Shown here: in pieces, positions 28,280-58,890 of the stretch
Numbering within the stretch: position 1 is the stretch's first letter
Layout of the letters: each line of letters begins with the position of its first letter
Source: Nemertoderma westbladi
Taxonomy: Eukaryota > Animalia > Xenacoelomorpha
Direction: 5' to 3'
NCBI GenBank assembly: GCA_032718475.1
Contig: JAUCBJ010006701.1
Location: 67,698-131,697, forward strand
DNA length: 64,000 nucleotides
Position numbers and translations under genes: made by a program
Notes under the pieces: generated by a model
The model's database searches: none
The model's input: only the letters and a program-made list of their open reading frames with translations
What the model was told of the DNA's origin: nothing

Positions 28280-29041
28280 CGAAAACTGCGCACAGGTGAC
28301 TTTGCTCGCAATATGGGACTTGTGGGGCGAGTCACTGGTTTCGTTTGGACGTTGAGAGACGGTGCGACTATTTCCTCGCAAATTCGTCTATTTGGCATCC
28401 CAAAACCTCGACCGATTCCTCGTGACCGATCAGTTGTCACTACAGTTGGTAGAACGTCTGGGAACGCGCGAGAAGCGGACGACGCAGACCCAAGAGTAGC
28501 TTGCGCCCCCTTCTGATCAGCTGGTGTGTGTCCCGATCCTCCTGTTGGTTCTCTAGGAAGCGATACCGTATCCCGAGTAATTCGAATAGTCGGCTCAGCT
28601 CCCTTGCGTTCTTCTATATTTGTTCGTTTCGTTGATTATTATATTATATTAAAATATTGATTGCATATAATTATAAAAGTAACAAAATATATTTCAATGG
28701 CTAAGGGCCAACATTGTCAATAATCCTAAAACAGTAATACTACTATATGATATAACTCTGTAAATACCTATAAAATTGAGATGTGATTGTATGATAATAT
28801 AATAATAGGCCTACAACAGTACCGGTACCAACATACGTAATGCAGTAACACATAGTGTACGGTAAATAAACTATATAAAGCACAACCTACATGTATGCAA
28901 TATTGTATGACTCCCCCCCCCCCATGTTTATTTCTATATTTTTTAATTTTGTTTAGGAATCCTCCGCCTTCAAGTACCGCTACGCTTAAATGGTCAACAT
29001 CTACTGATAGCCTTTTATTGATTGCCCGTGGGCCTAGTGAT

Positions 29042-32000: not shown

Positions 32001-32423
32001 TGAAAATGCTTCCTTGGTTTCTCTATCGTCCCCTCGAGTTCGTCTGTAAAGGTGCATTCCATCGAATTCGTCTCTTACCGCGGGCATAGGTTCGTGCGCC
32101 TTTAGGTATTGCATGGTATGATACAAACGACTAATTTCAGTATCGGGGTCTTCGCTAATGTCTCCCGTATCACACAAAGCGTCGTACGGGTAAAGTTCGT
32201 TGAAGGTTTTGCGCAAACTTTCGATTCTTTCGTTTAATGCATTTTGTCTTCTCTTTAATACATTCGAGTCATATTTAGTTCTCGCGAGTTTCGCTGTACT
32301 TTCCGATAATTCCTTTATACCAAATATAGTGTAGTCCTTGGCTCCAAATCTTTCGAATGGCGCTGCTGCCTCCTCTTGGATATCATATCCCCATCTCGGC
32401 TCTCCTTGTATCCCTTTCTCCAT
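29042..32423 (-). pseudogene. C extra ORF (~1130 aa): novel N-terminus + 3'-5' exonuclease + 3 CCHC knuckles; one frameshift near 30630
   Basis: FYDNEG, IQIRAADG, LPKMVRNMILDKTVVKIGSGVREDL, YVDT, YYLAIE; CSKCGVAGHHMTKC, CGWCGDQGSHTFYTC, CTYCNIKGHRASEC. The bridging frame IFREYNTQKTGTGYISYLLFNWD aligns with B. Confidence 0.82.
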
Positions 32424-33082: not shown

Positions 33083-36000
33083 TTATTTACTAATATTAGG
33101 TGGAGATTTGTAGTCTCCAGAATCGTTACGAGTCTCTTCAAGAAGTACGAGACGTTGAGTCGGTCTGTCTACTGTACGACCGTCAATTGTCCGTACCGTC
33201 ACAGTTCTTGTCACTCCATCCATAGATGGATGTGTGGCTAAAATTACACCTGTTATCCAGAAGCGTCTTTTTAGATTCACTTCCGCTAACAGCACGTGAT
33301 CTCCCGGCTTTAATGCGCGGGTGTTATTGTACCAGTTTGTTCTGGCAGAAATAGAGGGCAAATAATGGTTTTGCCATATTTCCCAGAATTTGTTAGCCAG
33401 TAGTTGCGTGATTTTCCACGCTTTTCTACCGTAGCTATCGCCTTCTATTGGAATAGAAATAGGCGTCAAAGTCGTCGGTGCCTGCATAAGCAGGTGTGCC
33501 GGTGTTAATGCAAACTGGGATTGTTTGTCATCGGGTACTAATACTATTGGTCTAGTATTTAGTATTGCCTCGATTTCAACAAACAATGTTGTCAGTTGGT
33601 CGTCTGTCAATATGTGGTTTACTGGAATGACCTTTGCCATGGCTGTCTTTATAGATCTAATCAATCTCTCCCAGACTCCGCCTCTCCATGGACTATCTGG
33701 AGGATTAAACTTCCAAACAATCTTGTAAGGACGTAGTTCGTTTGAGATTTGATCATGATCTAATTTCTTAAAGGCTCTAGCAATCTCATTTCGAGCACCA
33801 ACAAAGTTTGTCCCTTGGTCTGAGTACAAGCATTTCACTAGTCCGCGTCTAGCGATAAATCGCCGCAATGCTAGTATAAACGCGTTGGTAGAAAGATCCA
33901 TCACTCGTTCAATATGAACTGCCCTACTGGACATACATGTGAAAATCAGTCCCCAGCGTTTTACTAGTATACGTCCACGTTTCGTATGTATGGGACCAAA
34001 GCAATCAATTCCAGTCTCTGTAAAAGGTGGTCTGAATGCTTGAAGTCGTGCTTGTGGAAGTTCACTCATTTCTTGGGTACCTATTCTAGAATGTACCTTT
34101 TTACAAATAATACACGTACGTGTCACTGAACTTAATGCTTTACTGGGTCTAATTAATACAAATCTTGTACGTAAGTAGGAAAGACAGTGGTGTCTTCCAG
34201 CGTGTTTCAGATGTAAATGTGCGTCCAGTATCATTGCACGTTGTAGTTCGTGATGTTGCGGTATTATTATTGGGTATCTAAAGTTTGTGTTAAAGTCAAT
34301 GTTTTGAAGCCGAGATTTATGACAAATTAAGCCATTATAAATAATCGGACTCCAACTCAGTATTGGTGACGACTTGATTGGTTGACCTTGATTTATAGAT
34401 GTGAATTCGCGCGCGAAATATCGCAGTTGGTAATGGCGAATTAATTTAATTTCACACCTGTCAATCTCAGCCAATGTAAGTCGACGTGTAAAGTCGCGTT
34501 TGCCTTTAACGTATTGTACAAAACGTACAATCCACGCTAATTTTCGGCAAGCGTTTGTCCAAGAGTCTGTTAAGTTTACAATACGGTCGACGTGAGTATT
34601 TGTGACGTCATCAGGTAAGTCAATGGAGATTTTGGAAGGTTTTGATTTACTAGAAGGGCCCACGGGTCCGCCGGTAAGTATTCCCTTGTTGACTGTTGAT
34701 CCGTCCGGGTCTACAAGTAATTTGTCCTTCTTCGTCTTCCTACCTTGGTTGTCAGTACTTTGTAAGTCGATCGTTAATGGTGGTTTGAACTCTATGGGGT
34801 CACTGGGTTTCGGTAAACTTAATTTTCTGCCGATATTAATCCCAGGTTTCACCATAGGTTGCAAGTTCGGTATGTCTCTTGAGCGCAAAGTAACACCTGT
34901 ATTTACATTAGCGTAGGTACTACCCACATCTGTAATACATGAGGTTTCACCGTGCTTGTGGTTGCTCAAGTGTGTCAAATTTGGTAGTTTGTCAATACAA
35001 GGCCGCTCCAATAGGGAAACTGCGGCTTTACTGTTTGTCAATATGTTACTAGTGTCTGGTAGAACATTTTGTGACATGTCTGGTAAAATGTTTCGCGGAA
35101 CATCCGGCGAAATATCTAGTGACGTGTCTGGCAAAACGTCTGGTTGACCGTCTAGTAACGTGTCTGGCGATACGTCTGGTAACGTATCTGGTTGTTTGTC
35201 AATAGAAGGCCGCTCCAATAGAGAAACTGCGGCTTTACTGTTTGTCAATGCGTTACTAATGTCTGGTAGAACGTCTGGTTGACCGTCTAGTAACGTGTCT
35301 GGTTGACTGTCTAGTAACGTGTCTGGTTGACCGTCTGGCGATATGTCTGGTGTAGAAAGGCTCGCAAGTCTTCCGTTCTTGACCTTTGAAGTTATATCTT
35401 TCCATTTCGCCTTCGGTTTCTTCTTGAGTTTAGCCGCCGTCTTTTTCTTTGCTTTCCCTTTCTTTGGTTTTTTGATTTCCGCGTCTTTAGGGATAGTGTT
35501 AGACTTGTTGTCATATAGTGGTGGCCAATCTTGTGTCGATTTCTGCAAGAATTGGGGTCCATGTTGCCAAAATTCTTTGTTCTCCGGTTTACAGAATTCC
35601 TCAGGCATCATTCCTCGCGACGCAATATCGGCTGGGTTTTGTGGTCCGGGACAATGTCGCCAATCTTCCTTTATTGAACGGTCTAGAATTTCCGCGCGAC
35701 GGTTAGCTACGAATGTCTTGAATTCAAGTGTGTCGTTGTTTATGTAAAATAAAACCAACGTCGCGTCAGTCCAATAAAATATCTGTAAACTTGACTGTAG
35801 TTCTGTCTGTATAAGGTTCACGATGGTGGTTGACAGGGTTGCAGCTTGTAGCTCAGCTCGTGGTGTCGTCATATACTTAGTAGGCATTGTTTTTGCCTTA
35901 GAAGTAATGAGCGAAACATCGAATTCTTCTGAGTCTACTTGTCTGCGCAAGTACGCAGCCACACCAAAACCGTTGTCACTGGCGTCAGAAAAACAGTGTA

Positions 36001-39000
36001 ATTCCAAGTTGTCAGGAAATGTTGTTTGTAATGGAAAGTAGACTCTGGGTATGGAATAATCCTCTAGCGAAGATAATTCCGCCTCCCAGGTCTTCCATAA
36101 GTCCACTTGGTCTGATGAGATCGGCTCGTCCCATGTCAGTCCATCCTTCCAAATACTGCGCATATAAATGCGGGCTTGCAGTATTATTGGACTGATGAAT
36201 CCTAATGGATCGAACAATCGGCTCAATTTTGACAAGCATGATCTCTTTGTCAGTGTGTTTTCTTGACTGTCCAGTCTCACCTTCACTCGAAAGTTGTCCG
36301 TGTTTGGGTCCCAAAAGAGCCCCAACACCTTGGTCGTCGGTAGTGGTTCGAACTCTAGGTCTATGTCACCACCTCCACGCTCAGTCGTTCCGAATGAGTC
36401 TACTAATTCGGCACTGTTTGAGGCGAATTTGGTGAGGTTAAAACCTCCGCCCGCTAAGCAGTCCCGTAATTGATGTGCTACTGTTGTAGCACGTTCTACT
36501 GTGTCGCAACTCTGTAAACCGTCGTCGACGTAAAAGTCACGCTCCACAATCCTAATTATCTCTGGGTCATATAAATGTTTCTGATCCCTAGCGGCTTGTT
36601 TTAGGGCGTACATCGTACAGTTTGGGCTGTCTCTGGCACCGAAAACGCGAACTTGCATTTGGTAAGTCGCCGGTGGTAGACTTAAGTCTCCTTCCGGATA
36701 CCAGAGGAACCTCAAACTGTCTCTGTCTTGCTCTAACGCTCTCACTTGGTGAAACATAGCTTCAACGTCACAAGTAAAAGCTACTTGACGCTGACGGAAG
36801 CGCATAATCACCCCCATAAGATAATTATTCATGTTTGGTCCATCCATCAACTCGCTATTGAGGGACATTCCCTCAAACAGAGCCGCACAGTCATTGACTA
36901 CACGTACTTTGTCTGGTTTGTCGGGGTGTCTCACATAGTGATGTGGCAGGTAGTATGTCTGGTTAGTCACTATCTCTGGGTTAGTCATTCGGATAGCGTA
37001 TCCCTTAGTCAAATACGTCTCCATCTGAGTGTTGTACTGCAGATGGGCTTTCTCGTCCTTTAATAGACGTTGTCGTATTGAGTGTAGACGTCTTAAAGCT
37101 AGTGGGTAGTTATTTATAAGTTTAGGACTTTGGCTACGCCATAACATCCCCACCTCATAATGTCCGTCTTTCGTCTGGCGGATAGTATCTTCCATGATCC
37201 TCAAAGATTGTTTCTCCTGTTCCGACATACATGGTTCGTAGCTACCAGGTTCAGCTGTATCTTGTTCTAACCACCTGATAGTCTTCTCCGTTAATTCTTT
37301 GTCCAATGCAGCTTGTTCCACTTGATGATTTCTCAACGCGTCATCATCGATATCGACGGGCATTGTTGAGGTTGTTGGGGTAGGTAGACTCGCAAGCCTT
37401 CCGGCGTTATCATCTGTCGTCGATGGAATCTCTAGCTGACTCGTCTTCTCCCCAAGTTCTAAACTCACCTGGTGAATTAGCTGCTCCTTGTGACTTATCA
37501 TACTAGTTACACGTCTGTCATGTTTTGTATGTAAGGTAGTATGGTCCACGTCGTGTGAAAAGGAATGAATTGAATTTGTAGTTAATAAACTACATGTACT
37601 TTGTACATCGTCTTCCTCGTCACTTATGTCCAGTGTGCGCACAGGCGCTCGAGTATACCACCCTATCGGCGTTCTACAGGCGTATGCGTTTCCCGCTACG
37701 ACTGCCGATGGTCTGGTTTCCCACACTTGATGTAGGTTGAATTGGTCTGTCCCGATCAGCATGGCTACCGATCTATAATTGACAGGACATTCAGGTACAC
37801 CAAGGTGTCTGAAATACTTACGGTCCTCCAAGGATTGTTCTGGGACAGGACCTAGTAGGTTACTAAAGTCTTTTGTGGCCGCAAAAGTCAAATCCTTGAA
37901 GGGTAACAAAGACCTCTCCTTTTCGCTGTGTTGCGATTTTGGAAGAAGAGTGTCTAAGTTTAACTTAACTCGTGTCACTGGTATTGCACGTTGTCCGTGC
38001 ATACTACTCACGGTGTAACTGACGCGCTTACCTTGTCTGAGATCCGTCACTACATCAGCTATCTGCTCATCCACGTAGCTGTGAGATGAGGCTGAATCCA
38101 GGATAGCGTAGATTCTCTTGCTCCCCTTTGTGCCAGTAATCTTAATCGGAATTACACTGAATCCCTTTAGTTGGTCAGTCGTCAGAAGCGCGATCGATGG
38201 TTGTTCGTCTCCATCAGAATATACGTCGTCGTCTTCTGACTCTTCGTCCGACGATCCGGATTGTTCTGAGAAGCAATCCTTTATATGTGTCACAAAGGTT
38301 GGAGTCGTTTTCGATTCTCGATTTTTGTAGGCCGCATCACATCTCGCTGCTGCTTCCGGGTGTTCCCTGGCGAAGCGTTTTGTCGGCGTGTGGCTGTCTG
38401 TGTGGAGCAGACCGTCGTGGTTGCGTCCACAGGATGGACAAGTGTCGGTATTTGGGCAATCTTTACGGACGTGTCCGTGTCGCGTACACCGCCAACAAGA
38501 GTCCAATGGCCGTATCTGCAGCCGTCGTTCTTCCGAGTTTAACTCGCGAAACTGTCGACAACCTCTCAACTTGTGACCGATATACCGCTTGCCCAAATGC
38601 TCGCAGTATTGGCAGCCGCTGAAGTCGGTACCGAGTTGCTGTCTAGTCTGTTTTGTCCCAATGGGCGCAGATACCCTACTACCGTCCGAGAATTGTCGGG
38701 TTTCCGTCGGTGTGGCGTAAGTGGCCGTCTTGGTGGATGTTGTCTGGGGTTTTTGTCGGTTTGAGGATGGCAAGGTGATTCCTTCTGCCACGATGTGCTG
38801 GTCAGTGTAGTTGGATCGAGTTTCTACCACTGCTTCCCTGGATATCAAAAGGTACACATCCTCCAGTTTTAAGAATCCACCCCGCTCTTCCCGCTGGTAT
38901 TCAATCTTCCTCCACTCCCGACGAAGTCGATGGTGGAGTCGTCCTATGATCTTTAATAGGACTGTAGGGGTATTCCCGTAGTCAAGTTGTCCAATGGATC

Positions 39001-40367
39001 TCAAAGTAGTGATAGCGTTCTTTATCTCGTCAGCCAGTTTCAATAAGTCTACGGGTTTAGTAATAGCCCCTCCCTTACAGAGTTCCTCTATCACTGACCT
39101 GGCCATGCTGACTGTACCTCCGTAGATCGAAGTTAAACGATCGTACGCTAGTTCGAAAGCGTCCGGTACACCAACGAAGGTCTCCGCCAAATGTTTAGGT
39201 TCTCCTGACAACGTTTGAAGCAGGTAATTAAACTTCTCCCGTGATGTAAAGGCGCACACGGCGATCTGAGATTCGATATAGTCTACGAAAGTGTGCCAGT
39301 GTTTTGAACTACCGGAAAACTTCGGTGGTTGTTGTACCGGCAATCCCTGTCTGGCTGCGAATTTCGCTATCTCCTCGGCAACGTTCAGAGTTTCGCGTCC
39401 TTGGTTGGTAATCTGGTTGATATCCCTTCTTGGCGCTTTTCCCTGATACGATGTGTGTTTTGAAGGTACCGGTCTTTGTGGTTCCTTCGGGTGTCTATTG
39501 TGTTCGAATTCAGTGTTCCTCGAACTATCGGTTTGAACTTCCTCCAGACGTTCCTCAATCTGAGCCAACTTGTTAACAACTGGTCGCAGGATGTCGGCGA
39601 ACTGTTGTGTACTGATTGCGTCCGTTGGTTGTAACGCCTTCTGTGTTGGTGTATTCTGTGGAGGATTGTCTACAAAGGAGTTGTCTGAACGCTCGCGTTT
39701 ATATTCATCGGCCGCCCCTGTTCTAAATACCTCGCGTTTCGGGTAATCCGATTCGCTCGAAGTACTACTATCATCTGGATATGGTGGTCGACGTGTTCGC
39801 GTCCGTTGCGTCGTCCGAATTCTAACGTTTCGTTTCGGAACATCGTCCACTGATCTCCGTTGTTCGGTAGGCTCACAAGTCTTCCTCGAAGTCGTAGATT
39901 GCGATGTAAATTGGTTGAACGGTCGCGTATCCACTGGTCTCCGTTGTTCGGTAGGCTCACAAGTCTTCCTCGAAGTCGTAGATTGCGATGTAAACTGAAC
40001 CGGTGGGCGAATGACAGCATTTGAATCAACTGGCCTTGTAGGTCGAAACGTCATTGGGTAAGCGTAGTGTGTAACGGGTTTAGGTGTCGACGGTGGACTC
40101 ACCTGTTTAGTCGTCAGTAGTGCAGGTCCGGTCAATAAACTACTACGATCTGTAATCGGTGGGTTACTTACCTTGACTTTCAAAATAGGCGACGACGTTG
40201 CTCTTGGCGGTGTAAACTTGTCCGGAATAACAAACCTGTGTTCCGTCACACCATGGATAGGAGAAATATCACTACTACCCGCAATCGAAACAGGTTTCTT
40301 AGTCATAATTGGTGCAAACATAGGAGTTACTTGTGGGAATCGTTGACACAAGTCTTTTACTAATTGT
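33083..40367 (-). CDS. gag-pol: C gag-pol, major C-terminal part (gag core, protease, RT, RNase H, integrase)
   Basis: CWRCTRHGHVRKDC, ILDSAS, FYVDD, LHCFSDAS, HLHLKH..CIIC, GIDCFGP/SDQGTNF/WERL. The first ~42 aa of the ORF-track call are A2 LTR sequence. Confidence 0.93.
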
Positions 40368-40905
40368 TGTGACGGGCTCCAGGAGGGATCCCGATTTATC
40401 CGATGTGGTAATTTAGTCCACGCGTCCCCGCCGTGTATAAGGGTGAAATAAAGTGACTGAGTTCTGAAGTTCGGTGTATAATAATAATAGGGCATAGGAT
40501 ATAGATATAGATAATGTGTACAAGGCGGGATACGGTAACTAAAGTCCCGTGATCCCCTAACTAAACTAATTGGCTGTACCCTACGCTAGCACTGCTGCAC
40601 TGAGATAACTGCATCACTGATTAATAGGTTATTGGTTATATTGCACGGTGGCCTTACTGCTACTCAATCGATGCCGTTCCCCCCTCTGATTGGTTAATAC
40701 CCTTGTTGGCGCCCCGTGGAGTATTCCCGTTCACTCCACCTGTTCTCTCTGGGTTAGGGGTTTGGCCCCTGACCCTCTGTTGTGTGCTTCCTTCCCACTC
40801 TTATTGGGAAGGCACGAGTTGGTTAATTGCCCAATCTCGTGGCTCCCAATATTGCTTATCGGCTAATAACTTTATGGGGTGTTGGCGGGATTGAATAAGC
40901 TAACA
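40368..40905 (-). repeat. 3' LTR of A2
   Basis: TGTGACGGG...GCTAACA, homologous to 54144-54691. Confidence 0.95.
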
Positions 40906-40943
40906 CTCCCCCCCATGCTATCTTCCCGGTAAGAAGATAGCAT
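40906..40943 (-). promoter_or_regulatory. Polypurine tract of A2 preceded by a perfect 11-bp hairpin
   Basis: Minus strand ...GGGGGGGAG|TGTTAGC; inverted repeat ATGCTATCTTC (40915-40925) / GAAGATAGCAT (40933-40943). Confidence 0.8.
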
Positions 40944-41609
40944 CAACCAAAAAAAGTGCGCTACAATCCCGCTGGATCCCGATCTAGTATCGGGTGTGGG
41001 GTGGAATTCTTTTCTCTTGGAGCCGGCTTTCCAGGCCGCCCCCTATGGGTATGATAACGCTACCCTGTGTGCCTGGCGTCTCATGTCGGGCCGATCGCGC
41101 TCACCTCTTCACACGACTTTTGTTTCCCCAACACTTTCGCCCTATCTCACCTTCACTCTCACCCTAACTCTCTCACATTCGGACCTCCTCGTCCCTTACT
41201 CAGCCTCTTATTCCCCCCCCCCACACTGGAATTGCATCGGCACTCTCTCCGCACTCCGCACTATTATTCCGTCCCTCAACCTCACATCGACTGTCTCTTT
41301 CCTTCTGACGAATCTCCCCCCCCTCTCGTGCCGTCGCACTCAAGAAGTGTGAAATTGTCTGGCGTCTCGTCCATAGTGCCATAGTCAGTTATCCCCCAGT
41401 CCCACTAGCTAGTTGAGAAAGGTTGTATGACTATAGTACTTACTCCGATCGTGTATTTTACTGCTAATTACTACGTATGTACATACGAATTGCACTTATA
41501 TGGTTATTTGCATTAATTAAATTTATACTTAATAGTTCGTACGTTACATGCGGCGCCTTCCAGGCGCACCACGTCCCAGTCTCAGCCTCATTCCCTCGCC
41601 TCCGGGAAC

Positions 41610-44153
41610 TTATCTGTACCTCCTCACGTCCTCCTCCCTGGCCCGTTTCTTGGTTATCACCGCTCCTCTGGCATCATCCGCTTTCTGCTTCCGGACCTTT
41701 GCCGCCACTTCCTTGCTGATCCCGGTCGTCGGCTCCTTGGGCGCTGGTGTTATTAAAGCCCGATACCGCTTCGCCGGTGGCCCCTCAGAATGGCCTGGTT
41801 GTTTCCCTCGTGTGGCGTCCCATAGGATCATCTTCATTGCCTTTGGTACGTGTTCCGCCAAGAAATCCCTAAACTCCCTCCGGTTCTCTGGTGTCCACCT
41901 GTCCAGGTACCGTTGCGTGTTCATAACTCCGGCGAACGATGCCGCCGTAGCTACCTCTTGATAGGTAAACGGTAACCTTCGCTTTATGATTTCCATGTGG
42001 GTCTCCTGGTTTATGAGGAAGAAACCCCACTTGAACTCTTGGGCCTTCATGCGCTGGCGCGTCATGGCCCCGACGTCGGCCCACTCCTCGAACCTCGTGA
42101 ACTTCTCCTCGTCGCTCATCCAGTCGCACTCGCGCCCGTAGTGTCCCCGAAAGTGGCACTTTGGACATCGGTTATGCAACCGTGGACACGCCCCCATCCT
42201 GTGACTTGGTTCTCTACAATAGAGACAAAAGGTTCCCCGTTGGAACCGGTATAGGCAGCTGCTTTCCTGATGGGTCTGCCTCCCACAGTAGTCGCAGCCG
42301 AGTACCAATGTCTCGCGTCCCACCTCGTCCTTCGTCCCAAGCGATCTCCGCGGTCTATGGAGTCGCTGGTAGGCAAACTTCTCCACGTTGCTCTCCCTGT
42401 TTACGTCGATCTCTCCGCCCCTCTCGGGCATCGTCTCCCCGAATACTATCCGTGGTGCCGTCCCCGGTTGCTCGCCCAACCTGATGGTGCTCCCCGCGAA
42501 ATCCATCGCCGGCCCCTCGTGCACCCAGGTCCGCTTGCCGGATCTGTTCCAGAAGGCCCTCGCCCCACTGGCCGTCACCACCCTTCCGCCAACCCAGTCC
42601 GTGTCCGAGTGGCCTATCCTTTCGATGGGCGGCATCTCTCCGAACTCGTCGTCGTCGTCCTCCTCTTCTGGTAGTGTCTCCAATCCCGGTATCCCGATGG
42701 ATCCACTATGTCCCTTCCCGCCTTGGCTCTCGCCCGTAGCTCTCCATCCCTCTAGCTCCCTTAACTTCCTTGGCGGTTGGTCGCCCTCGGCGCCCGCTGG
42801 TATGGGCATCGCGTGCAACCCCGACGTCGACTGTTTCGGCGATCCCACCGTCCATCCCAATTCTCGCCCTAGAGACTCCCCCGAACTCCCCGACGAAGTC
42901 CAATGAAGTTCGTCTAGGCCCGCCTGTTCCTCGAAGCCGTAACTCTGTGCCCTGGCCTCCTCTTCCCTCTCCTCTGCTTCTATCCTCTCCCGTCTAGCGA
43001 CTTCTTCCAGTCGCTTTGCTTCCCGTCTATCCATCTCTAGCTGCTCCCATCTCTGATACGGTGTATCCGTCTCCCCATCTACCAGATGTCGGCTGTTGTA
43101 GTACACCGACTCGCCCTTCAGCCCCGGGTGGTCTACCAGACCGTCAAAGGCCGTCTTAAAGGCTCTCCTGTAGCTTAGGGGTGATCCCGATAACAGAAAT
43201 GCCCCTGGTTCCCTCTCGATAACTACGGTCATGAATAAGTTAAGTAAACTTATCATCATCCAGTCCTCCTGCAGGATATATCGCTTCTGATATACCTTTA
43301 TCGCTCCTCTGCGAAACTGATATACCTCCTGCTTTCCCGGTCTCGCTCCCCACTTCAGCGAGTTCGCTAGTTCTGCTCCGTATTCTTCCCTAAACTTCCC
43401 CCAATCCATCGGTTTGTGGCATACGAGCCCCAATAATTGGCCCATCGCCACCGCCCCGCATTGGCCTGTGTTCTCGACCACCCCCAATCCATCCGGTGCC
43501 GTCATAGCCATAAAGACTTTCTGCATGTCCAGGAGGTTGGTGGCGTCCGGACCGATGATCCTCTCCGCATCCTCGCGAATCGCCGATCCCACTTTCGTCG
43601 TCGACTTCTCTCTTACTAAGACTTGTACCGCTTTCGGCAGTCGGTCTAATTTCGGCCCGTCCTTCTTCCCATACGTCCCTAGATCGAATAAGAAGATGTC
43701 CCCATTCGGCGCGGCCAAATGTAGGAGTATGGTCCTGGCCGACCCTGCCGTTCCTCGCCTTGAACCCGCTTCGTCTTCCACGGTTCCCTCGTCATCTAGG
43801 ATCATATATCCTCCTCTGTTGACGGACTCTATGAATCTTTTCCAGTCCTTCCTCGGCGATTCCCTCGGGTACTTCGGAATCCCGAACTTCGCTTCGTCTC
43901 CTTTCACCACGTAGTGGAAGTGTTGGAAGATCGCGTTGTCCAGCGACGGCGTCCCGTAGGTCCCGACCAACCGCTGTTCGTGCGCCTCCCGGAAGTGATC
44001 CTGCAGCGCTCGTGCCGCGTGACCCCTTTCCAACCTCTCGTAGTATCCTCTCGTCTTCTCCTCCGGGTGTCTTTCGGTGAAATCCACCAATATTTCTTTT
44101 CCTCCTGACTCCGCCTTTCTCTTCCTGATCAGCTTACTCGCCATTCCGAACAC
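41610..44153 (-). CDS. A2 extra ORF (847 aa, intact): WRN/Mut-7/RNase D-like 3'-5' exonuclease + 3 CCHC zinc knuckles
   Basis: MILDDEG (ExoI), ILLHLAAPNGDIFLFDL, LPKAVQVLV..TKVGSAIREDA (ExoII), LLDMQ, RYILQED (ExoIII); CDYCGRQTHQESSC, CLYCREPSHRMGAC, CPKCHFRGHYGREC. Confidence 0.85.
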   Translation of the reverse strand: MFGMASKLIRKRKAESGGKEILVDFTERHPEEKTRGYYERLERGHAARALQDHFREAHEQRLVGTYGTPSLDNAIFQHFHYVVKGDEAKFGIPKYPRESPRKDWKRFIESVNRGGYMILDDEGTVEDEAGSRRGTAGSARTILLHLAAPNGDIFLFDLGTYGKKDGPKLDRLPKAVQVLVREKSTTKVGSAIREDAERIIGPDATNLLDMQKVFMAMTAPDGLGVVENTGQCGAVAMGQLLGLVCHKPMDWGKFREEYGAELANSLKWGARPGKQEVYQFRRGAIKVYQKRYILQEDWMMISLLNLFMTVVIEREPGAFLLSGSPLSYRRAFKTAFDGLVDHPGLKGESVYYNSRHLVDGETDTPYQRWEQLEMDRREAKRLEEVARRERIEAEEREEEARAQSYGFEEQAGLDELHWTSSGSSGESLGRELGWTVGSPKQSTSGLHAMPIPAGAEGDQPPRKLRELEGWRATGESQGGKGHSGSIGIPGLETLPEEEDDDDEFGEMPPIERIGHSDTDWVGGRVVTASGARAFWNRSGKRTWVHEGPAMDFAGSTIRLGEQPGTAPRIVFGETMPERGGEIDVNRESNVEKFAYQRLHRPRRSLGTKDEVGRETLVLGCDYCGRQTHQESSCLYRFQRGTFCLYCREPSHRMGACPRLHNRCPKCHFRGHYGRECDWMSDEEKFTRFEEWADVGAMTRQRMKAQEFKWGFFLINQETHMEIIKRRLPFTYQEVATAASFAGVMNTQRYLDRWTPENRREFRDFLAEHVPKAMKMILWDATRGKQPGHSEGPPAKRYRALITPAPKEPTTGISKEVAAKVRKQKADDARGAVITKKRAREEDVRRYR

Positions 44154-44656
44154 TACACTCGCTCACCTGTAGGGTGGTGCCTTACCAAGGCGCAATACAG
44201 ATGAGTGATGTATTAAGATGTTTCGTACAGTTCGATAATGGCCTACTTTTCTACTTAACTGCGCCTTTCAAGCTTAATTTAATCTAATTAATTTCGGAGC
44301 TAGTAAATCAGCCTAATTTACAATTTCCGTCCGTTACTTTTATTATGTTCTAGAACGACTTTCTTTGTGTTACCACTATTTTCCGATTTTAGCCCTATTC
44401 TATTTATTTGTTTATTTTGCTTTGATTCTACTGTCCTACTACTTACTACTGCCTATGGATTTATTCTATTCTCTCTCTGATCCATATTCTGGCCTACTCA
44501 GTGGGCCTATGCAGTACAGCAGTATGCGTCGTGTGGCCACACGATTTATCCAGCTGCACTCATATGCCCCCCTCTCGCTACTAACTCTACTTACTGCTAA
44601 CTAATATCTATATCCTATTTACCCCTTTTACCTCTTACTCTCTCTCTCTAACTAAT

Positions 44657-45515
44657 GGTACTACGTACCCTCTAACTCTAACTCTAACTAGGTACTACGT
44701 ACCTACCAACTCTCTAACTATCGGTACTACGTACCCTCTAACTCTAACTCTAACCAGCGGTACTACGTACCCTCTAACTCTAACTCTAACTAGCGGTACT
44801 ACGTACCTACTAACTCTCTAACTAACTCTAGGTACTACGTACCTACTAACTCTCTAACTAACTCTAGGTACTACGTACCTACTAACTCTCTAACTAACTC
44901 TAGGTACTACGTACCTACTAACTCTCTAACTAACTCTAGGTACTACGTACCTACTAACTCTCTAACTCTAGGTACTACGTACCTACTAACTCTCTAACTA
45001 ACTCTAGGTACCACGTACCTAGTAACTCTCTAACTCTAGGTACTACGTACCTACTAACTCTCTAACTCTAGGTACTACGTACCTACTAACTCTCTAACTA
45101 ACTCTAGGTACTACGTAACTACTAACTCTCTAACTCTAGGTACTACGTACCTACTAACTCTCTAACTAACTCTAGGTACTACGTACCTACTAACTCTCTA
45201 ACTCTAGGTACTACGTACCTACTAACTCCCTAACTCTAGGTACTACGTACCTACTAACTCTCTAACTCTAACTAGGTACTACGTACCTACTAACTAACTA
45301 ACTCTAGGTACTACGTACCTACTAACTAACTAACTCTAGGTGCTACGTACCTACTAACTCTCTAACTCTAACTAGGTACTACGTACCTATTAACTAACTA
45401 ACTAACTAGGTACTACGTACCTCTTAGCTAATTTCTGCCTACTAACTCTCTAACTAACTCTAGGTACTACGTACCTACTAACTAAGTAACTAACTCTAGG
45501 TACTACGTACCTACT
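44657..45515. repeat. Array of ~25 units (mostly 32-36 bp) with the hairpin TAGGTAC-TAC-GTACCTA, between pol and the extra ORF
   Basis: Directly visible; linkers are variants of CTAACTCT. Confidence 0.92.
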
Positions 45516-45632
45516 ATGTACTATTATTTTTATTTTATTTTTATTTTTATTTGTGTGGGAAGGGCGTCTCGCCCTCAATCCCACCCCCCTCAGTCCAAAA
45601 CTTGGACGACTAAACTTCACTCTAACTCCGCT

Positions 45633-48600
45633 TTAAGGTGCCCCTTCTAGAAGACAGCATTTACCTACCGCTCTCCTGTAGGTTTTTCTGTCCTTCGCAC
45701 CTATCTTTCCACCTATCCGCACTTCTACCGATCGGACTCTTCCGTCCTCGTCGGAGTAGGTGCCTACAACTCTCGCCAACCGCCACTGGTTGTTGATGAT
45801 AGTATCATCCGTGACGATTACGAGATCTCCCTCTCTTAACTCCCTGTTCGGCTTCCTCCACTTGCTCCGCTTATGGAGTGTGGGTAGGTATTCCTCTACC
45901 CACCTCCTCCAGTATTCTGCGCTAATTGCTTTAGCTACTTTCCAACTTTGGCGGGAGTGTATATCATCTGGGTCTACACCCCGCATATCGATGGTCGCTG
46001 GCCTTTCCATCAGGAAATGGCTAGGTGTTAGCACGTCTAATGACTCAGGGTCATCATTCTCTGGATATAGCGGTCTGCTATTAATGATCCCCTCGCACTT
46101 CGCAAGTACTGTCCGTAAGACGTCTTCAGTGACCATGTGGGTGTTCATCAGCTTCGTCATTAGACGTTTTGAACTGCCCACCAGTCTCTCGACGCATCCT
46201 AGTGTATGTGGTGCATACGGCGTCCTTCTCTCCCACTTCACTTGTCGTCTTCTCATGGCCGCCCTGACTTCTTCTCCCTCCAAGATGTCTAAGGCCTCTG
46301 CCATCTCACTCTCTGCGCCCACAAAGTTGGTGCCGTTGTCGCTATATATCACTGCGATCGTCCCACCTTTGCGGTCCCTAAACCTTTCTAAGGCGTTAAT
46401 GAATGCTGATGCGGTTGCATCTTGGGCGAGTTCTATCCCTACCGCCCGCGTATTGTTGCATACGAAGATAATACCGTAGCGTTTCTCCGTGTGTCGCATC
46501 ACCTTGATCTTTATCGGCCCGAACATGTCCACACCGCAATGCGTAAATGGCGGGTCGTGCTGTCTTACCCTACTCGCCGGTAGTGGCGCCATCTCCTGTA
46601 CGGCTCGCTCCTTCTTCGCTCGTCGGCAGGTCTGGCACTGCCCCACTACCGCTTTCACCTTCTTCCTTAGTTGTTTGACCCAATAGGTCCTCCTTATCTC
46701 TGTGAGGGTTCGGTTGGTGCCCCCATGCAGTATCGATTTGTGGGAGTCCCATATGATCTGGTGGACTATAGGCGATCCTGTGGGAATGATGATGGGTTTC
46801 GGTGGCACGACTATACTGTTGTTATATCCCACCCTAGAATTCATTACTAGAATCCCATCCTCGTTGAGTTGTGGCGACAGCGTGATCAACTCGCTATCCC
46901 GTCGGAGGTGCTGTTGGTTACCGACGCGTTCCACCTCGTCGCCGTAGTTCTTGCGTTGTTCATAGCGGATCACTGCCTTGGCCGCTCCTTCCAGATCTAT
47001 GGTTATCCTGGTCTTCTTGTCCTTGCCGACTCCCGCAAGGAAATTCCCAAAGGCTCTCCAGTACGCCACTAGTTTCTTGGTCTTATACCAACTGGAACTG
47101 TAGCTGAGGAGTTTATCCGTCGGGTTGTCGCACAGTTCCCTTCCTGGTTGCACGTCCCTAATCTCCCTCACCATCTGGGAGTATATCTCTTCTCCCTCTG
47201 AATCTCCCTCTTCTCCTTCTGATACTGGTTCCGAGCCCGGGTCCACCTTCCTCATCGGCGGCCAGGCCTCTCTATCGCTCAGAAATTGTGGCCCATGTTG
47301 CCACAATACTTCCTTCTTCAGGAAAGTGTGGCGTTCCACGCCCCTCGACAGCAAGTCCGCTGGGTTCTCATCTGTTGGGCAGTAGTGCCACCTTTCCAGT
47401 TCTGTGCTCGCCCTTATTTCGTCCACTCTATTCGCGACGAATATCGGGTATCTCGTCTTTTCGTTGTGTAGCCAACCAAGCACTACCATGGAGTCCGTCC
47501 AGTAGTGTGTCTCCACTATGTTGGGAATTGTATCCACTAGGTAGGCTGTGGCTCTAACTCCTAGTCTCGCAGCTGTCAATTCTAACTTGGGAACAGATGC
47601 TGAATCTGGCGGCGTTGACTTAGCTTTGCTAAAGGCTAGTCTGGGCTTGTGAGGCCCCTCTCGTTGTACTAAATAGAGTGCCGCTCCGTATGCCTCTAAC
47701 GACGCGTCGGAGAACATATGTAGGTCCAGATTCGTCATGTTCCCGTCCGGGAAATACACTCGCGGCATGTTGTATGTTCCCATCCTCTCCAAGTCTCCTG
47801 TCCATTTGCTCCACTGTTTCTTGATGTCTTCTGGTACCTCTACGTCCCACTCATCCTTCAACTTATATACTCTCTTGAGTATCTGTTTCCCCGTGACTAG
47901 TAATGGGGATGCTAGGCCTAAGGGATCGTATATCCTTGCTATATACGATACGTAACCCCTCTTCGTATGGGTGTCTGCGCCCTCCTGGCTCAGCTGATAC
48001 TTCAGTTCGTCTGTTTTTCTATCCCACACGATTCCCAACGCCTTCTGCTGGGATTCCGTTCTCTTAATCGCCATGTCCTGTCCTTTGGCTGTTGTAGGGT
48101 TGTCCATGGTCGATTCTGGTTTCTTGTCTTCTATTTCCCTGATAAATTCTTCTGAACTGGATTGGAATTTGGTCAGGTTGAAGCCGGATCCTTTCAGGAT
48201 GTCGCGAACCTCGCGCCCTGTTTCCAGTATCTCCTCAACCGTATTTCCAGACTCCATGCCGTCGTCTACGTAGAAACCGCGTCTGATCATATCGACGGCC
48301 CTACTGCTGTATCTATCTTCCTTCCCCTTTACCGTGTCTCTCACTGCCATAGTCGTCGTAAATGAGGACGACTTGGCCCCCATATTTTGTACTACCATCT
48401 TATATGCCGGTATTATAGGCGGTTCTTCTTCGCCGTTATACCATAAGAAGCGTTGACTGTCGCTATCTTCCTCTGTTACTCGGACTTGGTTGAACATGCC
48501 TTCTATGTCACACGTGAAGGCGTGTTTCCCATTCCTAAATCTAAGTAGTACTTCTATGCCCGAATTGTATATGTTTGGGCCCTCTAGTAGGTAATCGTTT

Positions 48601-51600
48601 AAGCACTTTCCGTCGGTCTTTGCCGATGCATCGACTACCATCCTAAGTTTACCTTTCTTTGGGTCTAAAGCTACGTGGAGTGGCAGGTAGTATGTCCTGT
48701 CCGTGTTCGGTTCGTCGACCGGTAACTCCACGGCCCATCCTTTCTCGACGTACTTCTTAATGGTTTTGTGAATGTACTCGTTCTTCTCGGGGCTCCGTTG
48801 TAGTGTTTGTTTCAGCTTGCGGAGTCTCGTGAGTACCATCCCTCTATTATCGGGTAGCGGTATCTTCGGTAGTTTCCATACCATTCCTATTGTATACCGC
48901 CCCTCATCACACGTCATCGATTCCTCCACACTTTGTAGAGCCTGCTTGTCTTCTACCGAGGTCCCGACCCCGGTCTCTTTCAGTCCCTCGAAGTCCTGTC
49001 TGAGCAGTCTTTTAAGCTGCTCCTCTGCTCCCTCGTCACCCATTTCCTGCATTGTTCCCGCGAACATGCATCCTGATGTCTCCGACATCCTGAATGGTAT
49101 CTTGCTCTTAATTGGACCACTCAGCGTCCACCCGAATGGCGTTAATATGGCCACCGGGTCGCTCTGCTTGTCTTCGCCGAAGACCGTCTGCATTCTCTCG
49201 TGGGCCGTTGGGCAGTCCATGCCTACTATGATGGATACCTTCCTAACGTCCACGTCTGGGATTGAGAAGTCAATGTTGTCCAGGAATTTGTATTGCTCGA
49301 CCTCGATGTTGGTTGGCCGCCTGGCATTGATGTTAATTGACTCTATTACTTGGATGGGGTCGATGGTTGCCCCATAATCGCATCCTGGTGCCACTGCTGC
49401 AATTGCGCACCGTCCTGTCCTCATCTCTAGGATCTCGTCTTTGCTAGAGATGGTTGTCACCGCCATCCTGCTTGGCCTCGTTCTCAACCCTATTTCTTCG
49501 GCTACCCATTCCTCAACTAATGTGAAGGCAGCTCCACTATCAACCAGCATTAGTGTTGTTACTGATCGATTGCCTTCCCCGATCACTCGTACTGGTACTA
49601 CTCCAAGTAGCACTGTTCCTCTCTTCTTCGCCCCTACTGTGCTCGTTGCCATCGTCTGGCCTCTCCTTTGGCCAAACTTGACCGGTTTCTCTTGGCATTC
49701 CCTGGCCTTGTGTCCACTCTTCACACATCGCGAGCAGATTTTATTGCTCGACGCGTAATCTATCTGGTCTTGCCTCGGTAGCGCCTGCCAGTACCTGCAG
49801 TTCATGGTTTTATGAAGCGCATTTGCGTGTAACTGGCATTTGCTCTTTGGGTCATAGCCCTCTTTATACAATGCATTGCGTATCGCAGTTATATTCGTAC
49901 CAAAGTCCCTACTATTCTTATTGACTGGGTTTGACCTACTGGACGTACTGGGGTTATGTTTATTCATGTTGTTATTGTTCCCCTGTCCGTCCCTTGATGT
50001 TGTCTTATCTTCGTTTGTCTGTGGACTTGCAGTCCCCTGCGTCGCTGCGTATGGCAATGATTGTCTGAGCCTCGGCAATGCGTTTGATGTATTGTGCTCT
50101 GGTTTGGGCCTGTAATGATCTGTCTTTGGTCCCTTTCCCAGGCTATCTTCACTATAGACTGGGTCCGTTATTAGTTCAGCCTCGTAATTTAAGAAGTTTG
50201 ACATTTCTTCTAAACCTGGTTCCGCACCCTTCTTGTCTCGGGTGGAGAAAGCGATCTTCCTCCATTTGTTGCGCAGCCAGCTCGGTAGTGCCTGCGCTAT
50301 CGTGGTGATGTTATTGGACGCGTTGAGTTCGTATGGCGCGTCTAGCGTCTTCAGCACGATCAGCGCCTTCTCGACTTTGTTAGCAAACGTCTTAATGCTA
50401 ACGGGATTATCCTGTAGGCCACCCGATGTTATGCCTCTCAGCGTTTGCCTGATGATCTTGGCCGGGTGCCCGTATTCCCTATCCAGTGCCCGCCATGCTG
50501 TCGTGAAGCCGCCCTCTATTCCCTGGTATTGCCTCACGATGTCGTATGCTGGGCCTCCCGTGTACACTTGTAGATACTTTAGGCACTCCGCCTGCGTCAA
50601 GTTTTTTGTTAGTATTTCGTTACTATACATTCGCCGAAACTGCAAGTATTCTTCCGGCCTGCTCCCATCGAATTTGAACGGTTCCACGGGTGGTAATTCG
50701 ATCCTCGTTTTCAACGCATCGATCAACGTGGCCATCCCCATTGCCTGCGCTTCTAATGGATTCGACGGATGCTGTATAGTTTCCCCTGTCTGGTGCGGTT
50801 CGTCCGTCCTATTTCTTGATCTTCTCTGACTCGGATATGTCATCGGGGGTAGCGGCCCCCTCCATATGTCTGTATCACACGACCTGTTTTCGTCCAAGGG
50901 TTTCACTGTTCTTGCTACCATCGGGGTATATTGTTGATATTGTGATGGGGGAATGTCACCCTGTCCCCCCCCCCACCGGTATGTCTGGTACTGGGGTTGA
51001 TGTTAATACGTTGGGGCCCATGCACCTATCCGCAATAATTCCCCCCTCCCCTGGGTATATGTTATGTCCCTGCATGCTGTAGTCATACTGCTGTGCTGGT
51101 ACCGGTATAGGCCTATCAGCTTCTGGCCTACTCGCCGGTATGTATTCCGCGACTTCCGGGTTTAATCCCGTTGTCCGCGCTATCCTATCGCCTACATTGC
51201 CTCTCTCAGTATGGCCTACGGTATGTGCAGTAAGACCTACAGTATGCCCTACAGTCTGCATGTGTTGCTCGGGATCGAAGTTTATTCTTCTCGAATAATC
51301 CTCCCCGCGGCTACCGTATTCTCGATCGGTAGGTACATTCCGTCGGAAAGTTTCTCTTCGACCCCCCTCTCTACTGTTCTCTTCTTCGTACCGGTACATC
51401 GCGTACCCCTCTCTCGGCGTGTAATGCGTCTCACCGGATCGCATCCCTCCGGGGCGACGGCAATCTCCCGGAGTCCGACCCCACTGACTCTCCGTTCTCA
51501 TCTCGATTACCGACGGCTCGCTGTCCGTCCTCGCTCTTCTATCGTTTGCGGCGATACTTCTACTACTCTCTTCCTCTCTTCTCCTATCAGTGGAATATTC

Positions 51601-54064
51601 CCGCTCACGAGATCTCTCGTCGACCTCCCGGTTAAACCCCACTGTTCTTCTTTCCTCCTCTGATCGGGCTCGACGCTCCGTCTGCCCTCCCGCGACGTCA
51701 ACCTGTCTTTCTCTGCTCGATCGCACGTCGCTGGGGATACTCGCAATCCCCCTATTACTTTCCGTCGCCGGTTGTTGCGGTTTACCTTGTTCGGCCCTCG
51801 CATTGTCCGCTGACGGCTGTGGGACACTCTCTGCCCCCCCCCCTCTCGCCGCTAACTCTCTGTTGTGGGGCCCTCGTAGCCCCCCCCCACTCGCTACATC
51901 TAACTTCGCTACCTCTCTCCCCGCCATTATATACCTCTCTAGTCGACACATCAACCCTACTACAGTCGGGTCTATTTACCCCCCCTCTCCCTCTGCTATT
52001 GCGTGGCCTTCCAGGCCCTCTACTCCCTGCCTACCAACTACGTGGCCTACCAGGCCCTCTGCTCCTTGTCTACTAACTACGTGGCCTACCAGGCCCTCTT
52101 CCGGCTGGTTATGTAGGCCCGACGTGTTCACATTAATAGCACCCATATTGGAAACGGAATTAATTTGCTCGTTCGAAACAAAATCATTCGTATTATTCTG
52201 CGCGACTACGTTATCTGAATTATTTTGTAAATTCGGGCATGGATCATTATTTAAATTATTTGGATTATTTTGCGTAATCGCGTTATTTAGATTATTTAGT
52301 AAGTTCGAATTTGGGTTATTATTTTGATTATTTAAATTATTTTGCGTAATTACATTAATATTAGAATTATTTTCTACATTAATACTAGGATTGTTCTGAT
52401 TTAAATTTAAATTACTACCACTAGGTAAAGTATTTCCTGCAATAAAGGTTTGATTAGAGTTATCCCATACGGTACTATTAATATCAACAACTTCTACTGT
52501 ACCATCATTATTACCCCCCCCCGCCCGTACGGTCACACCAGTTTTGGGTCTGTCGTGCGGTCCCTGTCAGTGGGGTATTAATAAACGTATCTAGGGCCCC
52601 CGGGTCCTCAAAAATACTCGAGCCGGCCCCGCTTGCAGACGGCGACGCTTGCGCCAGTCGCAGCTCGTGCGCCCGTCTAATCTTATGTTCCGCAAGCACA
52701 CTTTGGCGTCTCTTTATTTTCTCTTGCTCTCGCTCAGCCTCTGCCCTTCTCTTCTCACACTCCTGGGTGTCCCGACTGCCCGACTCTACTATACTCCTAG
52801 CGCTCTCCCTTCGTCTCGCCTCACGCTCTTTGCGTTCCTTTTCCCTTCTCGTCTCATATTCCTTGCGTTCCTTTTCCCTTTTTGCCTCACGTTCCCTGCG
52901 TTCCCCGTCCTCCCTTTCCTCACGCTCTCTGCGTTCCCTTTCCTCCCTTTCCTCACGCTCTCTGCACTCATTTTCCTCTATTTCGTCTCTCTCCCTAAGG
53001 CTTCTCAAAGCTCTTTCGACCCTCTCTCCGGTCTCCTTAATCAATTCCGCTTCCCTCATTAACCGCACTCTCCCCTCCTCTAACCGTTCCTCCATTTCCT
53101 TCTGACCTTGCTCTACCACGTTGAGACGGTATGCGGCACCTATCTCTCTCACCACTCTTCCTTTCGCGGAGGATGTAGCAGACTTATCGGTTGCGACGGA
53201 CCCCCTCCGCCTTCCCGACCTACTAACTTTCCCCCGCTTCCCGGAACTTTCTCCGACCGACGAGGCCGAATCCTCGCGGTTAACCTCGGATTCGCCCCCC
53301 TCAGGTCCCCTCCAACCCACTGGTTTTACTCCCCGGGCATCGACCAAGTATGGCCCTATGTACACTGGCGCTACGCTAGGTTCCATACTCCCACACTCCC
53401 ATAGTTCAAACAGTTCGCCTGCAATTCCCTTTGCTCTCTCCCCGGCTAGTTCTCTCTGCCCAAAACGTATCAGGTAATTTAAGTGTCTGTCCGACTCACC
53501 TAGTCGCTTTCTCAGTCTCACCTCGTCTACCTTCGCCCCTTGCTTCTTGGCGTCGTTTATCAGCTTCCGGGTCGCGTTGTAGGCCCGTCGAAGTCGGTCA
53601 GAAACCCCGACGTCCTCGTCGCCGACCTCTCCTCCGTCCCTCCGGGTCCGACGTCGTACCGGCGGCTCCACCGTCGCCGTTCCGGTGGGCCGCTCGTCGC
53701 CCTCGGCCTGTAGCTGGCCGGCGACATCGGTACCGATCTCTCCTCCGTCTCTTCGCGTCCGGCGTCGCACCGTCGGCCCCACCGTCGCCGTTTCGGTGGG
53801 CCGCTCGTCGCCCTCGGCCGGTAGCTGGCCGGCGACATCGGCGCGCCGTTCTCCGTTCCGTGTCGACTCATCTCCTTCTCCCTCCGTCTCGCTCTCCCTT
53901 TCCCTCTGCTCGACTTCGGGTTCCAGACCCTCCTCGTTCTGGACTTCCGGTTCGCCCGTTATCGATGGCTCCGGCGTCGTGGGCCTGTATCGCTTGGTCG
54001 CGGCCTCGCGGATCGTTAGGTCTTCGTCCGGGGTCCGCGGCGGTGTCTCGCCCGATTCACTCAT
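45633..54064 (-). CDS. gag-pol: A2 gag-pol (pieces 52511-54064, 51976-52536, 50956-51954, 45633-50921; breaks at poly-C runs)
   Basis: 45633-50921 is an uninterrupted gag core-PR-RT-RH-IN frame (LVDSGA, FYVDD, FSDAS, HKSILH..CQTC, GVDMFGP/SDNGTNF/VERL). Upstream breaks coincide with homopolymers at ~52514, ~51980 and ~50965. Confidence 0.92.
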
Positions 54065-54143
54065 CTCGTCTGCTCGGTGGAGTTCGACTAGCTAGCGTGG
54101 GGTTCTTTGAGTTTAACTAGGGCGGCAGCTCGGATTTAGTTAC

Positions 54144-54691
54144 TGTGACGGGATCCAAGAGGGATCCCGATTTATCCGGTTGTGGTAATTTAGTCCACGC
54201 GTCCCCGCCGTGTATAAGGGTGAAATAAAGTGACTGAGTTCTGAAGTTCGGTGTATAATAGGATAGTTCATAGGATATAGATATTGTGAATGTGTACAAG
54301 GCGGGATACGGTAACTAAAGTCCCGTGATCCCCTATCTAAACTAATTGGCTATTATCCTACGCTAGCACTGCTGCACTGAGATGACTGAATCACTGGTAA
54401 TAGTTACTGCCAAGTGGCTATACTGCACGGTTGGCCTTACTTACTACCTCAATCGATGCCGTTGCCCCCCTCTGATTGGTTGTTACCCTTGTTGGCGCCC
54501 CGTGGAGTATTCCCGTTCACTCCACCTGTTCTCTCTGGGTTAGGGGTTTGGCCCCTGACCCTCCGTTGTGTGCTTCCTTCCCATTCTTATTGGGATGGCG
54601 CGAGTTGGTTAATTGCCCAATCTCGCGGCTCCCAATATTGCTTATCGGCTAATAACTTTATGGGGTGTTGGCGGGATTGAATAAGCTAACA
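54144..54691 (-). repeat. 5' LTR of A2
   Basis: Homology to the other A LTRs; adjacent TSD. Confidence 0.95.
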
Positions 54692-54696
54692 ATTGT

Positions 54697-58757: not shown

Positions 58758-58890
58758 ACTTGACTAATAGGCGTACAATAGATATAACAAATACAAATGA
58801 GGACTCAAAGCAATCTTTTACAAAGTTAATTCGAATAAAATAAAAATTTTGAAAATCCACGGCATTTAGAGAATATAATTCTATAGTAAT

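Follow-up and report, generated by a model that had tools for sequence, protein, structure and literature searches.

What gene sits behind pol, in the env position, in the BEL/Pao elements of Nemertoderma westbladi? The window analyzed here, a 64,000-nucleotide (nt) stretch of contig JAUCBJ010006701.1, is a nest of such long terminal repeat (LTR) retrotransposons with all of their genes on the minus strand. Three of them, designated A2, B, and C, each carry a minus-strand third open reading frame (ORF3) 3' of the integrase and in sense with pol. Our results show that ORF3 is a real gene, selected in at least one family, and that it probably encodes a variant DEDDy exonuclease accompanied by CCHC knuckles. 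The ORF3 features are as follows.

41610-44144, minus strand: A2 ORF3, intact, 844 amino acids (aa), first ATG at 44144 and stop at 41610.
43170-43862, minus strand: predicted DEDDy-type exonuclease domain of A2, from its register with bacterial PF01612 domains and from modeling.
43796, 43790, 43571, 43280, and 43268, minus strand: predicted active-site set of A2, D117, E119, D192, Y289, and E293, respectively.
42126-42296, minus strand: three A2 knuckles, each CX2CX4HX4C.
29042-32423, minus strand: C ORF3, frameshifted near 30630, within the exonuclease domain.
31013, 30743, and 30421, minus strand: exonuclease motifs of C, with three knuckles at 29642-29821.
10466-12715, minus strand: B ORF3, with an in-frame stop at 11213-11215, ending inside the LTR before any knuckle.

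The A2 protein is arranged as an exonuclease-like domain, an acidic low-complexity linker, three CCHC knuckles, and a helical tail. An earlier note on this DNA, made from its letters alone, had described three sense ORFs beyond the integrase, and three homologous minus-strand ORFs were confirmed by alignment: against 300 shuffles each, A2 ORF3 gave z scores of 8.8 and 10.0 with the first and second parts of C ORF3 and 5.2 with that of B. The motifs that it had listed, D-x-E-G (H-x-E-G in B), LPKxV..KxGS..xD, and xD[TM], are all present, and the three knuckles were found in both A2 and C. Its description of the ORFs was right for the intact A2 copy and the truncated B copy, and it has to be amended for C, which is frameshifted, and for B, which also contains a stop codon; the upper limits that it gave for ORF3 in A2 and B lie a few codons upstream of the first ATG. 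A location between the integrase and the 3' LTR applies fully to A2, whereas in B no polypurine tract (PPT) and in C no canonical LTR pair marks that end. B ORF3 runs straight into the downstream LTR with neither an intervening PPT nor a matching duplication, and the end of the gene has therefore been lost.

Alignment of the B and C ORF3s gave 40% identity over 615 columns and 51% over 129. Since A2 and C match both in the exonuclease domain (z 12.7) and in the knuckle part (E value of 2e-7, including an F-x-E-W-x-D motif behind the knuckles), the cassette of exonuclease, knuckles, and tail has one origin. B and C share an additional N-terminal domain of about 450 aa (31000-32423 in C and 11300-12715 in B) that is about 40% identical between them, is absent from A2, and carries a CxxC-x21-CxxH motif; it had no convincing Pfam match (best E value, 0.17). 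A membrane-spanning segment was sought in all five ORF3 pieces and none was found (maximum 19-residue Kyte-Doolittle means of 1.0 to 1.4), so ORF3 is not env-like. The pieces also have charged N termini.

Selection can be followed in the A family, to which A2 belongs. In runs X1 and X3, contigs cover 30 of 30 bins of A2, including ORF3, and contain many variant copies; the best run may itself be the source of the window. Among the best-supported 40 of 139 variant rows over 43050-43950, a non-random selection, there are 30 synonymous changes, 10 that replace a residue, and none that creates a stop. Against the 34% synonymous changes expected for transitions, the proportion in these best 40 of 139 corresponds to a p value of 1.4e-7 and a rough omega of 0.17. 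Nine more ORF3 variants are likewise largely synonymous (7/9). Small indels in A-family ORF3 were not listed in any of four runs (three samples), and five larger deletions in the region occur in single contigs each. These data support the conclusion that ORF3 is kept under selection in the A family, and to that extent they uphold the proposal of a selected accessory gene.

The DEDDy-like reading of the shared domain is supported because several individually weak tests agree. A reference profile was built, without any window sequence, from 57 bacterial PF01612 domains picked from 150 places; searched against the 281 window ORFs of at least 60 aa, it ranked the ORF3s of B, A2, and C first, second, and third, and all three matches sit at the ExoII motif. 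HHalign placed the ORF3s against this reference with an E value of 0.002 and a score of 26.0, with ExoI and ExoII in register; the controls scored 11.2 +/- 2.0 (60 column shuffles; maximum, 16.5), 12.5 (reversed), and 11.5 to 16.7 (two other window domains). The ExoI D-x-E and the ExoII Asp stand in register as D117/E119/D192 in A2 and as their equivalents in C, and in a MAFFT alignment D117, E119, D192, W265, Y289, and E293 of A2 fall in conserved columns of the family. In the ESM Atlas, 25 of 30 hits to A2 belong to a cluster set with PF01612 (34% of members in the best cluster), as do 28 of 30 hits to C (top cluster score, 0.92; 17% of members). The three best clusters for A2 are unnamed fungal proteins (scores of 0.94 to 0.95), and the top cluster for C is mostly rotifer. 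The two queries are only about 26% identical to each other, yet they indicate the same Pfam family; shuffled proteins reach a score of 0.9 in 4 to 10 of 100 cases.

Several results weigh against this reading. None of the sequence tests is significant by itself. The hmmsearch E values of the PF01612 profile were 0.016 (B), 0.59 (A2), and 0.79 (C); a narrower profile of 18 rows, most of them EXD-like, put B in first and A2 in third place and did not detect C; and the HHalign probability was 13.5%. No Pfam exonuclease family was found in the ORF3s even at an E value of 10, and PDB sequence searches with ORF3 gave no exonuclease match. A2, B, and C all end the catalytic set with Glu (YxxxE where YxxxD is canonical), B has His in place of Asp at the first catalytic position, and the positions matching this fourth-acid Glu and the His of B are needed for activity in the Trypanosoma brucei RND enzyme (TbRND), according to the excerpted report (PMC7797062). 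Of the 40 variants used for the selection estimate, 38 lie in residues 236 to 341, and selection at ExoI and ExoII is not directly seen. AlphaFold2 on A2 ORF3 alone failed to fold it, with a predicted local distance difference test score (pLDDT) of 33.8. A guided AlphaFold2 model reached a mean pLDDT of 71.9, and about 90 in the core; 46 of the 49 rows of its alignment are known bacterial exonucleases, to which two C pieces were added. This model matches Exd1, diDNase, RNase D, TbRND, and Nibbler with Z scores of 11.3 to 11.9 and root mean square deviations (rmsd) of 3.5 to 4.1 over 169 to 201 residues, and in Foldseek it has TbRND at the top (E value of 8e-5) and viral DEDDy proteins at 2e-4. 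These fold matches are largely circular and their ranking is a tie; since the fold came in with the alignment, they demonstrate no more than compatibility.

Other searches returned no relatives. Homologue searches with A2 ORF3, the first part of C ORF3, and a two-row alignment, covering near lengths, found nothing; phmmer against 1.84 billion representatives gave a single repetitive false match; and IMG/VR, metagenome contigs (searched with C ORF3), and phage tblastn yielded no ORF3 relatives. Six metagenome BEL pol loci had no tblastn match to ORF3, and these loci are too short to show an ORF3.

Taken together, these results make a DEDDy-type 3'-5' exonuclease the likely identity of the shared domain, with the qualification that the final acid would make it a non-canonical Glu variant (D-E-D-E). 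The earlier assignment to the DEDDy exonucleases thus stands on several agreeing weak tests and departs from the type at that Glu; of the profile and structure checks that it called for, the HHalign E value and the Foldseek ranking favor it, and the HHalign probability and the circularity of the model do not. We regard a DnaQ-like fold as very probable and catalytic activity as probable.

Which elements carry this gene? The remaining features of the elements are as follows.

40368-54691, minus strand: element A2, a complete BEL/Pao copy of 14,324 nt with an LTR pair, a target-site duplication, and a PPT.
54144-54691, minus strand: A2 5' LTR, with TG..CA ends.
40368-40905, minus strand: A2 3' LTR, with a G-rich PPT just before it.
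45633-51002, minus strand: A2 ORF with Peptidase_A17, DUF1759, DUF5641, and integrase.
44580-45516, no strand assigned: repeat array of 32- to 36-nt units between the A2 pol stop and ORF3.
1398-9305, minus strand: element A1, a sister copy of A2 truncated within pol.
9697-26080, minus strand: element B, with 775-nt LTRs that are 99.6% alike and a pol split by a non-LTR insertion.
27948-58298 (limits uncertain), minus strand: element C, with gag-pol at 33083-40367 and 54692-56141.

Assignment of A2, B, and C to BEL/Pao (Belpaoviridae) rests on pol features: Pao-type domains, the order protease, reverse transcriptase (RT), RNase H, and integrase, and a DUF1759 gag. Pfam gave Peptidase_A17 at E values of 1e-39 to 1e-42, together with DUF1759, DUF5641, and Integrase_H2C2, in all three. 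TG..CA LTRs, a PPT, and a target-site duplication occur all together only in A2. A2 is inserted within the gag gene of C, and the empty site is bridged by contigs in 4 of 4 public runs; its LTRs of 548 nt (5') and 538 nt (3') are 92% alike, and its 5-nt target-site duplication is ACAAT. A1 has no ORF3 because it is truncated inside pol. A PPT and a matching target-site duplication were looked for at the LTRs of B, and neither was found. For C, no canonical LTR pair was found; it has a PPT at about 28912-28925 and a 332-nt direct repeat (27948-28279 and 56951-57282) that lacks TG..CA ends, and its 5' LTR probably extends beyond 58014. The net sizes of the elements are 14.3 kb (A2), 14.4 kb (B), and about 15.0 kb (C).

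The earlier note had counted three divergent families. The RT-RNase H regions of B and C are 60% identical, and those of A2 are 36% and 32% identical to C and B, respectively; by this measure A2, B, and C represent two deep lineages (A2, and B with C), not three. In an RT tree, A2, B, and C split from six metagenome rows (99/99); the tree has no root and places A2 on a long branch, and the split does not demonstrate common descent of ORF3. That ORF3 is an old gene, as had also been proposed, is plausible and no more, because ancestry and exchange cannot be told apart from three rows and an unrooted tree.

Several other observations concern the elements and their surroundings. The A2 LTRs are just 92% alike despite an intact target-site duplication and intact pol and ORF3 frames, a pattern suggestive of gene conversion or of recombination between RNAs of different subfamilies. 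In A2 (50956-54091) and A1 (4747-8770), the region upstream of the gag core, which includes an Asn-rich stretch and short repeats, is split into several frames at partly similar places; introns or recoding are possible. The pol of B is interrupted at 16773-18793, plus strand, by a 5'-truncated non-LTR element (RVT_1, a weak DUF6451, and a (TAG)n tail) flanked by an exact 47-nt duplication, which is unusually long for a target site. An inverted copy (94%) of the C 5' region occupies 80-1393 and ends at the A1 boundary. A stretch at 58690-58770, minus strand, looks tRNA-like by eye, and ARAGORN and Rfam called nothing there. A 181-aa frame at 61197-61742, minus strand, has an IFVDFQ...FKEFAI motif, a C-terminal Cys/His cluster, and no useful Pfam match; we presume a resemblance to the RNase H-like ORFs of Maverick/Polinton-type elements. 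A long array of 19-nt repeat units fills 61627-64000.

A possible substrate for the exonuclease is suggested by the primer-binding site (PBS). In A1, A2, B, and C alike, the sequence past the 5' LTR end opens with GTA, where a tRNA site would have TGG. The initial 9 nt after the LTR of A2 (54135-54143) are exactly complementary to 54311-54319 within the 5' LTR, in A1 the first 10 nt (8765-8774) are exactly complementary to 8938-8947, and in C the putative 11-nt PBS (56940-56950), placed by an LTR end that was itself inferred from the repeat edge, is exactly complementary to 58004-58014. The complementary word lies 172 to 175 nt upstream of the PBS in A1 and A2 and 1,063 nt upstream in C, and on the minus strand of the window these words are confined to the A LTRs or, for C, to a single site in its 5' region. 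Equally good pairings arose in 3 of 2,000 shuffles for A2 and 2 of 2,000 for C. Between A1 and A2, both pairing sides show a one-base difference, the A1 PBS and its word each being one matched base longer; the A2 pairing is present in the minimum-energy fold (z -1.9); and the inverted C-like copy at 80-1393 has a one-base difference within the complementary word. The International Committee on Taxonomy of Viruses (ICTV) names an 18-nt PBS matching the 3' end of tRNA-Arg or tRNA-Gly, and the sites here, judged by their GTA start and own-LTR match, are different. The complementarity reads as a self-priming signature and points to an atypical priming mode in A1, A2, and C.

In B, a primer from a splice junction inside the LTRs was considered and is unsupported (89 of 100 shuffles as good); it is unnecessary for A. 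The B leader (24700-25305) contains three 109-nt tandem repeats, the starts of which resemble the B LTR end plus PBS, and each repeat holds a 12-nt word complementary to LTR position 25716.

How does this gene compare with known systems? The closest known parallels are the bdelloid rotifer LTR retrotransposons Juno and Vesta, which we take not to be BEL/Pao elements. As in ORF3, theirs is a stand-alone RNase D-like ORF behind pol in the env slot, with no transmembrane domain and with one catalytic Asp replaced by Glu; the rotifer motif is DEED, however, and here it is D-E-D-E. The comparison is by description, and the mostly rotifer Atlas cluster of C is a lead only. The earlier note knew of no prior description, and this claim fails for the concept, which was published in 2017: in the excerpted text, DEDDy RNase D-like ORF3s are reported from Juno and Vesta and are shared with Athena/Terminon elements (PMC5408684). 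The same excerpts suggest 3'-end processing of element RNA or a Mut-7-like silencing role, give a DEED motif and no membrane domain with activity unproven (repeated in the excerpts of PMC6431247), and describe no knuckle fusion, the terms "CCHC" and "PBS" being absent from the text (PMC5408684).

A similar architecture is found in TbRND (PDB 7C42/7C45), an RNase D-type exonuclease followed by several CCHC fingers, which matches the guided, circular model with a Z score of 11.5 and an rmsd of 4.0 over 201 residues. TbRND is a cellular enzyme with four fingers after a 28-residue linker, whereas A2 has three knuckles about 270 to 290 residues behind the domain. Identity to ORF3 is 16 to 18%, and the common architecture is likely convergence. 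In TbRND the four fingers raise RNA binding and cleavage or 3' trimming, according to the excerpted text (PMC7797062).

With Belpaoviridae, the elements share a DUF1759 gag with a knuckle, the PR-RT-RH-IN order, Peptidase_A17, DUF5641, and, fully in A2, LTRs with a PPT; they differ in their length of 14 to 15 kb, in a third gene that is not env, and in a PBS that is not tRNA-like. Belpaoviridae are given as 4.2 to 10 kb long (PMC3118150 and PMC8742986), and the ICTV profile, which describes tRNA priming for the family, does not mention an exonuclease gene (PMC8742986). The word "exonuclease" does not occur in the accessible part of a BEL/Pao survey (PMC3118150). Tf1 and Tj1 also have a PBS complementary to a stretch of their own LTR, but they belong to another LTR family, and RNase H frees the Tf1 primer with no third gene needed, as far as the excerpted text goes (PMC4600332). 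Literature searches, which did not cover Repbase, Dfam, or GyDB, found no BEL/Pao or knuckle-fused exonuclease case. Relative to published cargo, the features that are unreported in the literature searched are a BEL/Pao carrier, fusion to three knuckles, the DEDE signature, and the presence of self-complementary primer sites in the same elements.

By analogy with these systems, we tentatively favor the reading, which falls just short of being probable, that the ORF3 protein acts as an RNase D/Mut-7-type 3'-5' exonuclease that trims the RNA of its own element at single-stranded 3' ends. Because ORF3 starts 660 to 1,490 nt after the pol stop, it would be read from a separate mRNA, spliced or internally started. 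The knuckles may, like the fingers of Trypanosoma RND, grip single-stranded RNA and feed its 3' end into the active site; by binding genomic RNA they could also bring the protein into the particle. The leading candidate substrate, though itself doubtful, would be the self-primer for reverse transcription: an LTR-derived RNA piece would pair with the PBS over 9 to 11 nt, and the exonuclease would trim away the unpaired 3' overhang as far as the duplex, leaving a 3'-OH for RT. That a tRNA-independent deep BEL/Pao lineage thereby supplies the enzyme that matures its primer, in the form of a three-knuckle DEDE-variant exonuclease trimming LTR-derived RNA to the PBS duplex, is conceivable and on present evidence unlikely. 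B has no self-complementary PBS (best, 5 to 6 nt), and this counts against primer maturation. So does the presence of DEDDy cargo on Penelope-like elements, which have no LTR or PBS; this presence favors a function independent of priming. Self-priming of Tf1 is also said, in the title of a reference, to be due to RNase H alone.

An active exonuclease could instead face the host, shortening or destroying piRNAs or siRNAs, or competing with Nibbler/Mut-7, and thereby weakening silencing. The guided model shows no preference among Nibbler, Exd1, and RNase D, and the A family is present in its host in many, variable copies; mature piRNA 3' ends, however, are 2'-O-methylated, a modification that blocks many such exonucleases. 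Recurrence of a similar gene on the differently replicating Juno, Vesta, and Athena suggests a host-facing role, although in the excerpted rotifer text copy number shows no clear relation to ORF3 (PMC5408684). On balance we consider this rather unlikely, if worth keeping in view.

Unlikely as well is a dead or weak DEDD fold serving as an RNA-binding adaptor that moves, protects, or packages element RNA, comparable to Exd1, Egalitarian, and Maelstrom. YxxxE replaces YxxxD in all three ORF3s and B has H-x-E, Exd1 is tied for top structural match to the guided model, Egalitarian reaches a Z score of 10.4, and inactive EXD1 and Maelstrom are raised as parallels in the excerpts of the rotifer paper (PMC5408684). 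Against this, A2 and C keep all four acids plus the Tyr despite about 75% divergence, B is a broken copy, and the same excerpts judge rotifer ORFs with an Asp-to-Glu swap (DEED) to be possibly active (PMC5408684).

A DNA-editing enzyme, proofreading for RT or polishing cDNA ends before strand transfer or integration, would suit elements of 14.3 to 15.0 kb where 4.2 to 10 kb is typical, and the DEDDy domains of WRN and PolA proofreading match the guided model at Z scores of 10 to 11.7. The exonuclease is not fused to pol, however, CCHC knuckles indicate RNA in the sole solved precedent, ORF3 itself accounts for part of the extra length, and A2 LTRs that are just 92% alike and family copies that vary widely show no unusual fidelity; we judge this role improbable. 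Chance motif resemblance in an unrelated orphan nucleic-acid-binding protein, for which the lack of any homologue in Pfam, PDB, or the databases searched, the Atlas scores of shuffled proteins, and the failed unguided fold would speak, is likewise improbable given five correctly ordered motif positions, a blind ranking as the top three of 281, the shuffle-controlled HHalign score, and two divergent Atlas queries that agree on one Pfam family.

The env slot of an LTR element is usually taken to hold an infectivity gene, and here it holds a selected, exonuclease-like gene with what appears to be its own RNA-binding module. This suggests that the capture of 3'-trimming enzymes recurs across retroelement families and is not a rotifer oddity. 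An intact ORF with signs of purifying selection, named predicted active-site residues, and a candidate substrate in the 9- to 11-nt PBS duplex together make a case in which the question of function can be tested in vitro. If trimming of the self-primer were true, it would represent a second biochemical means of self-priming that differs from primer release by RNase H in Tf1, and primer maturation would be the first job assigned to the exonuclease cargo of a retroelement.

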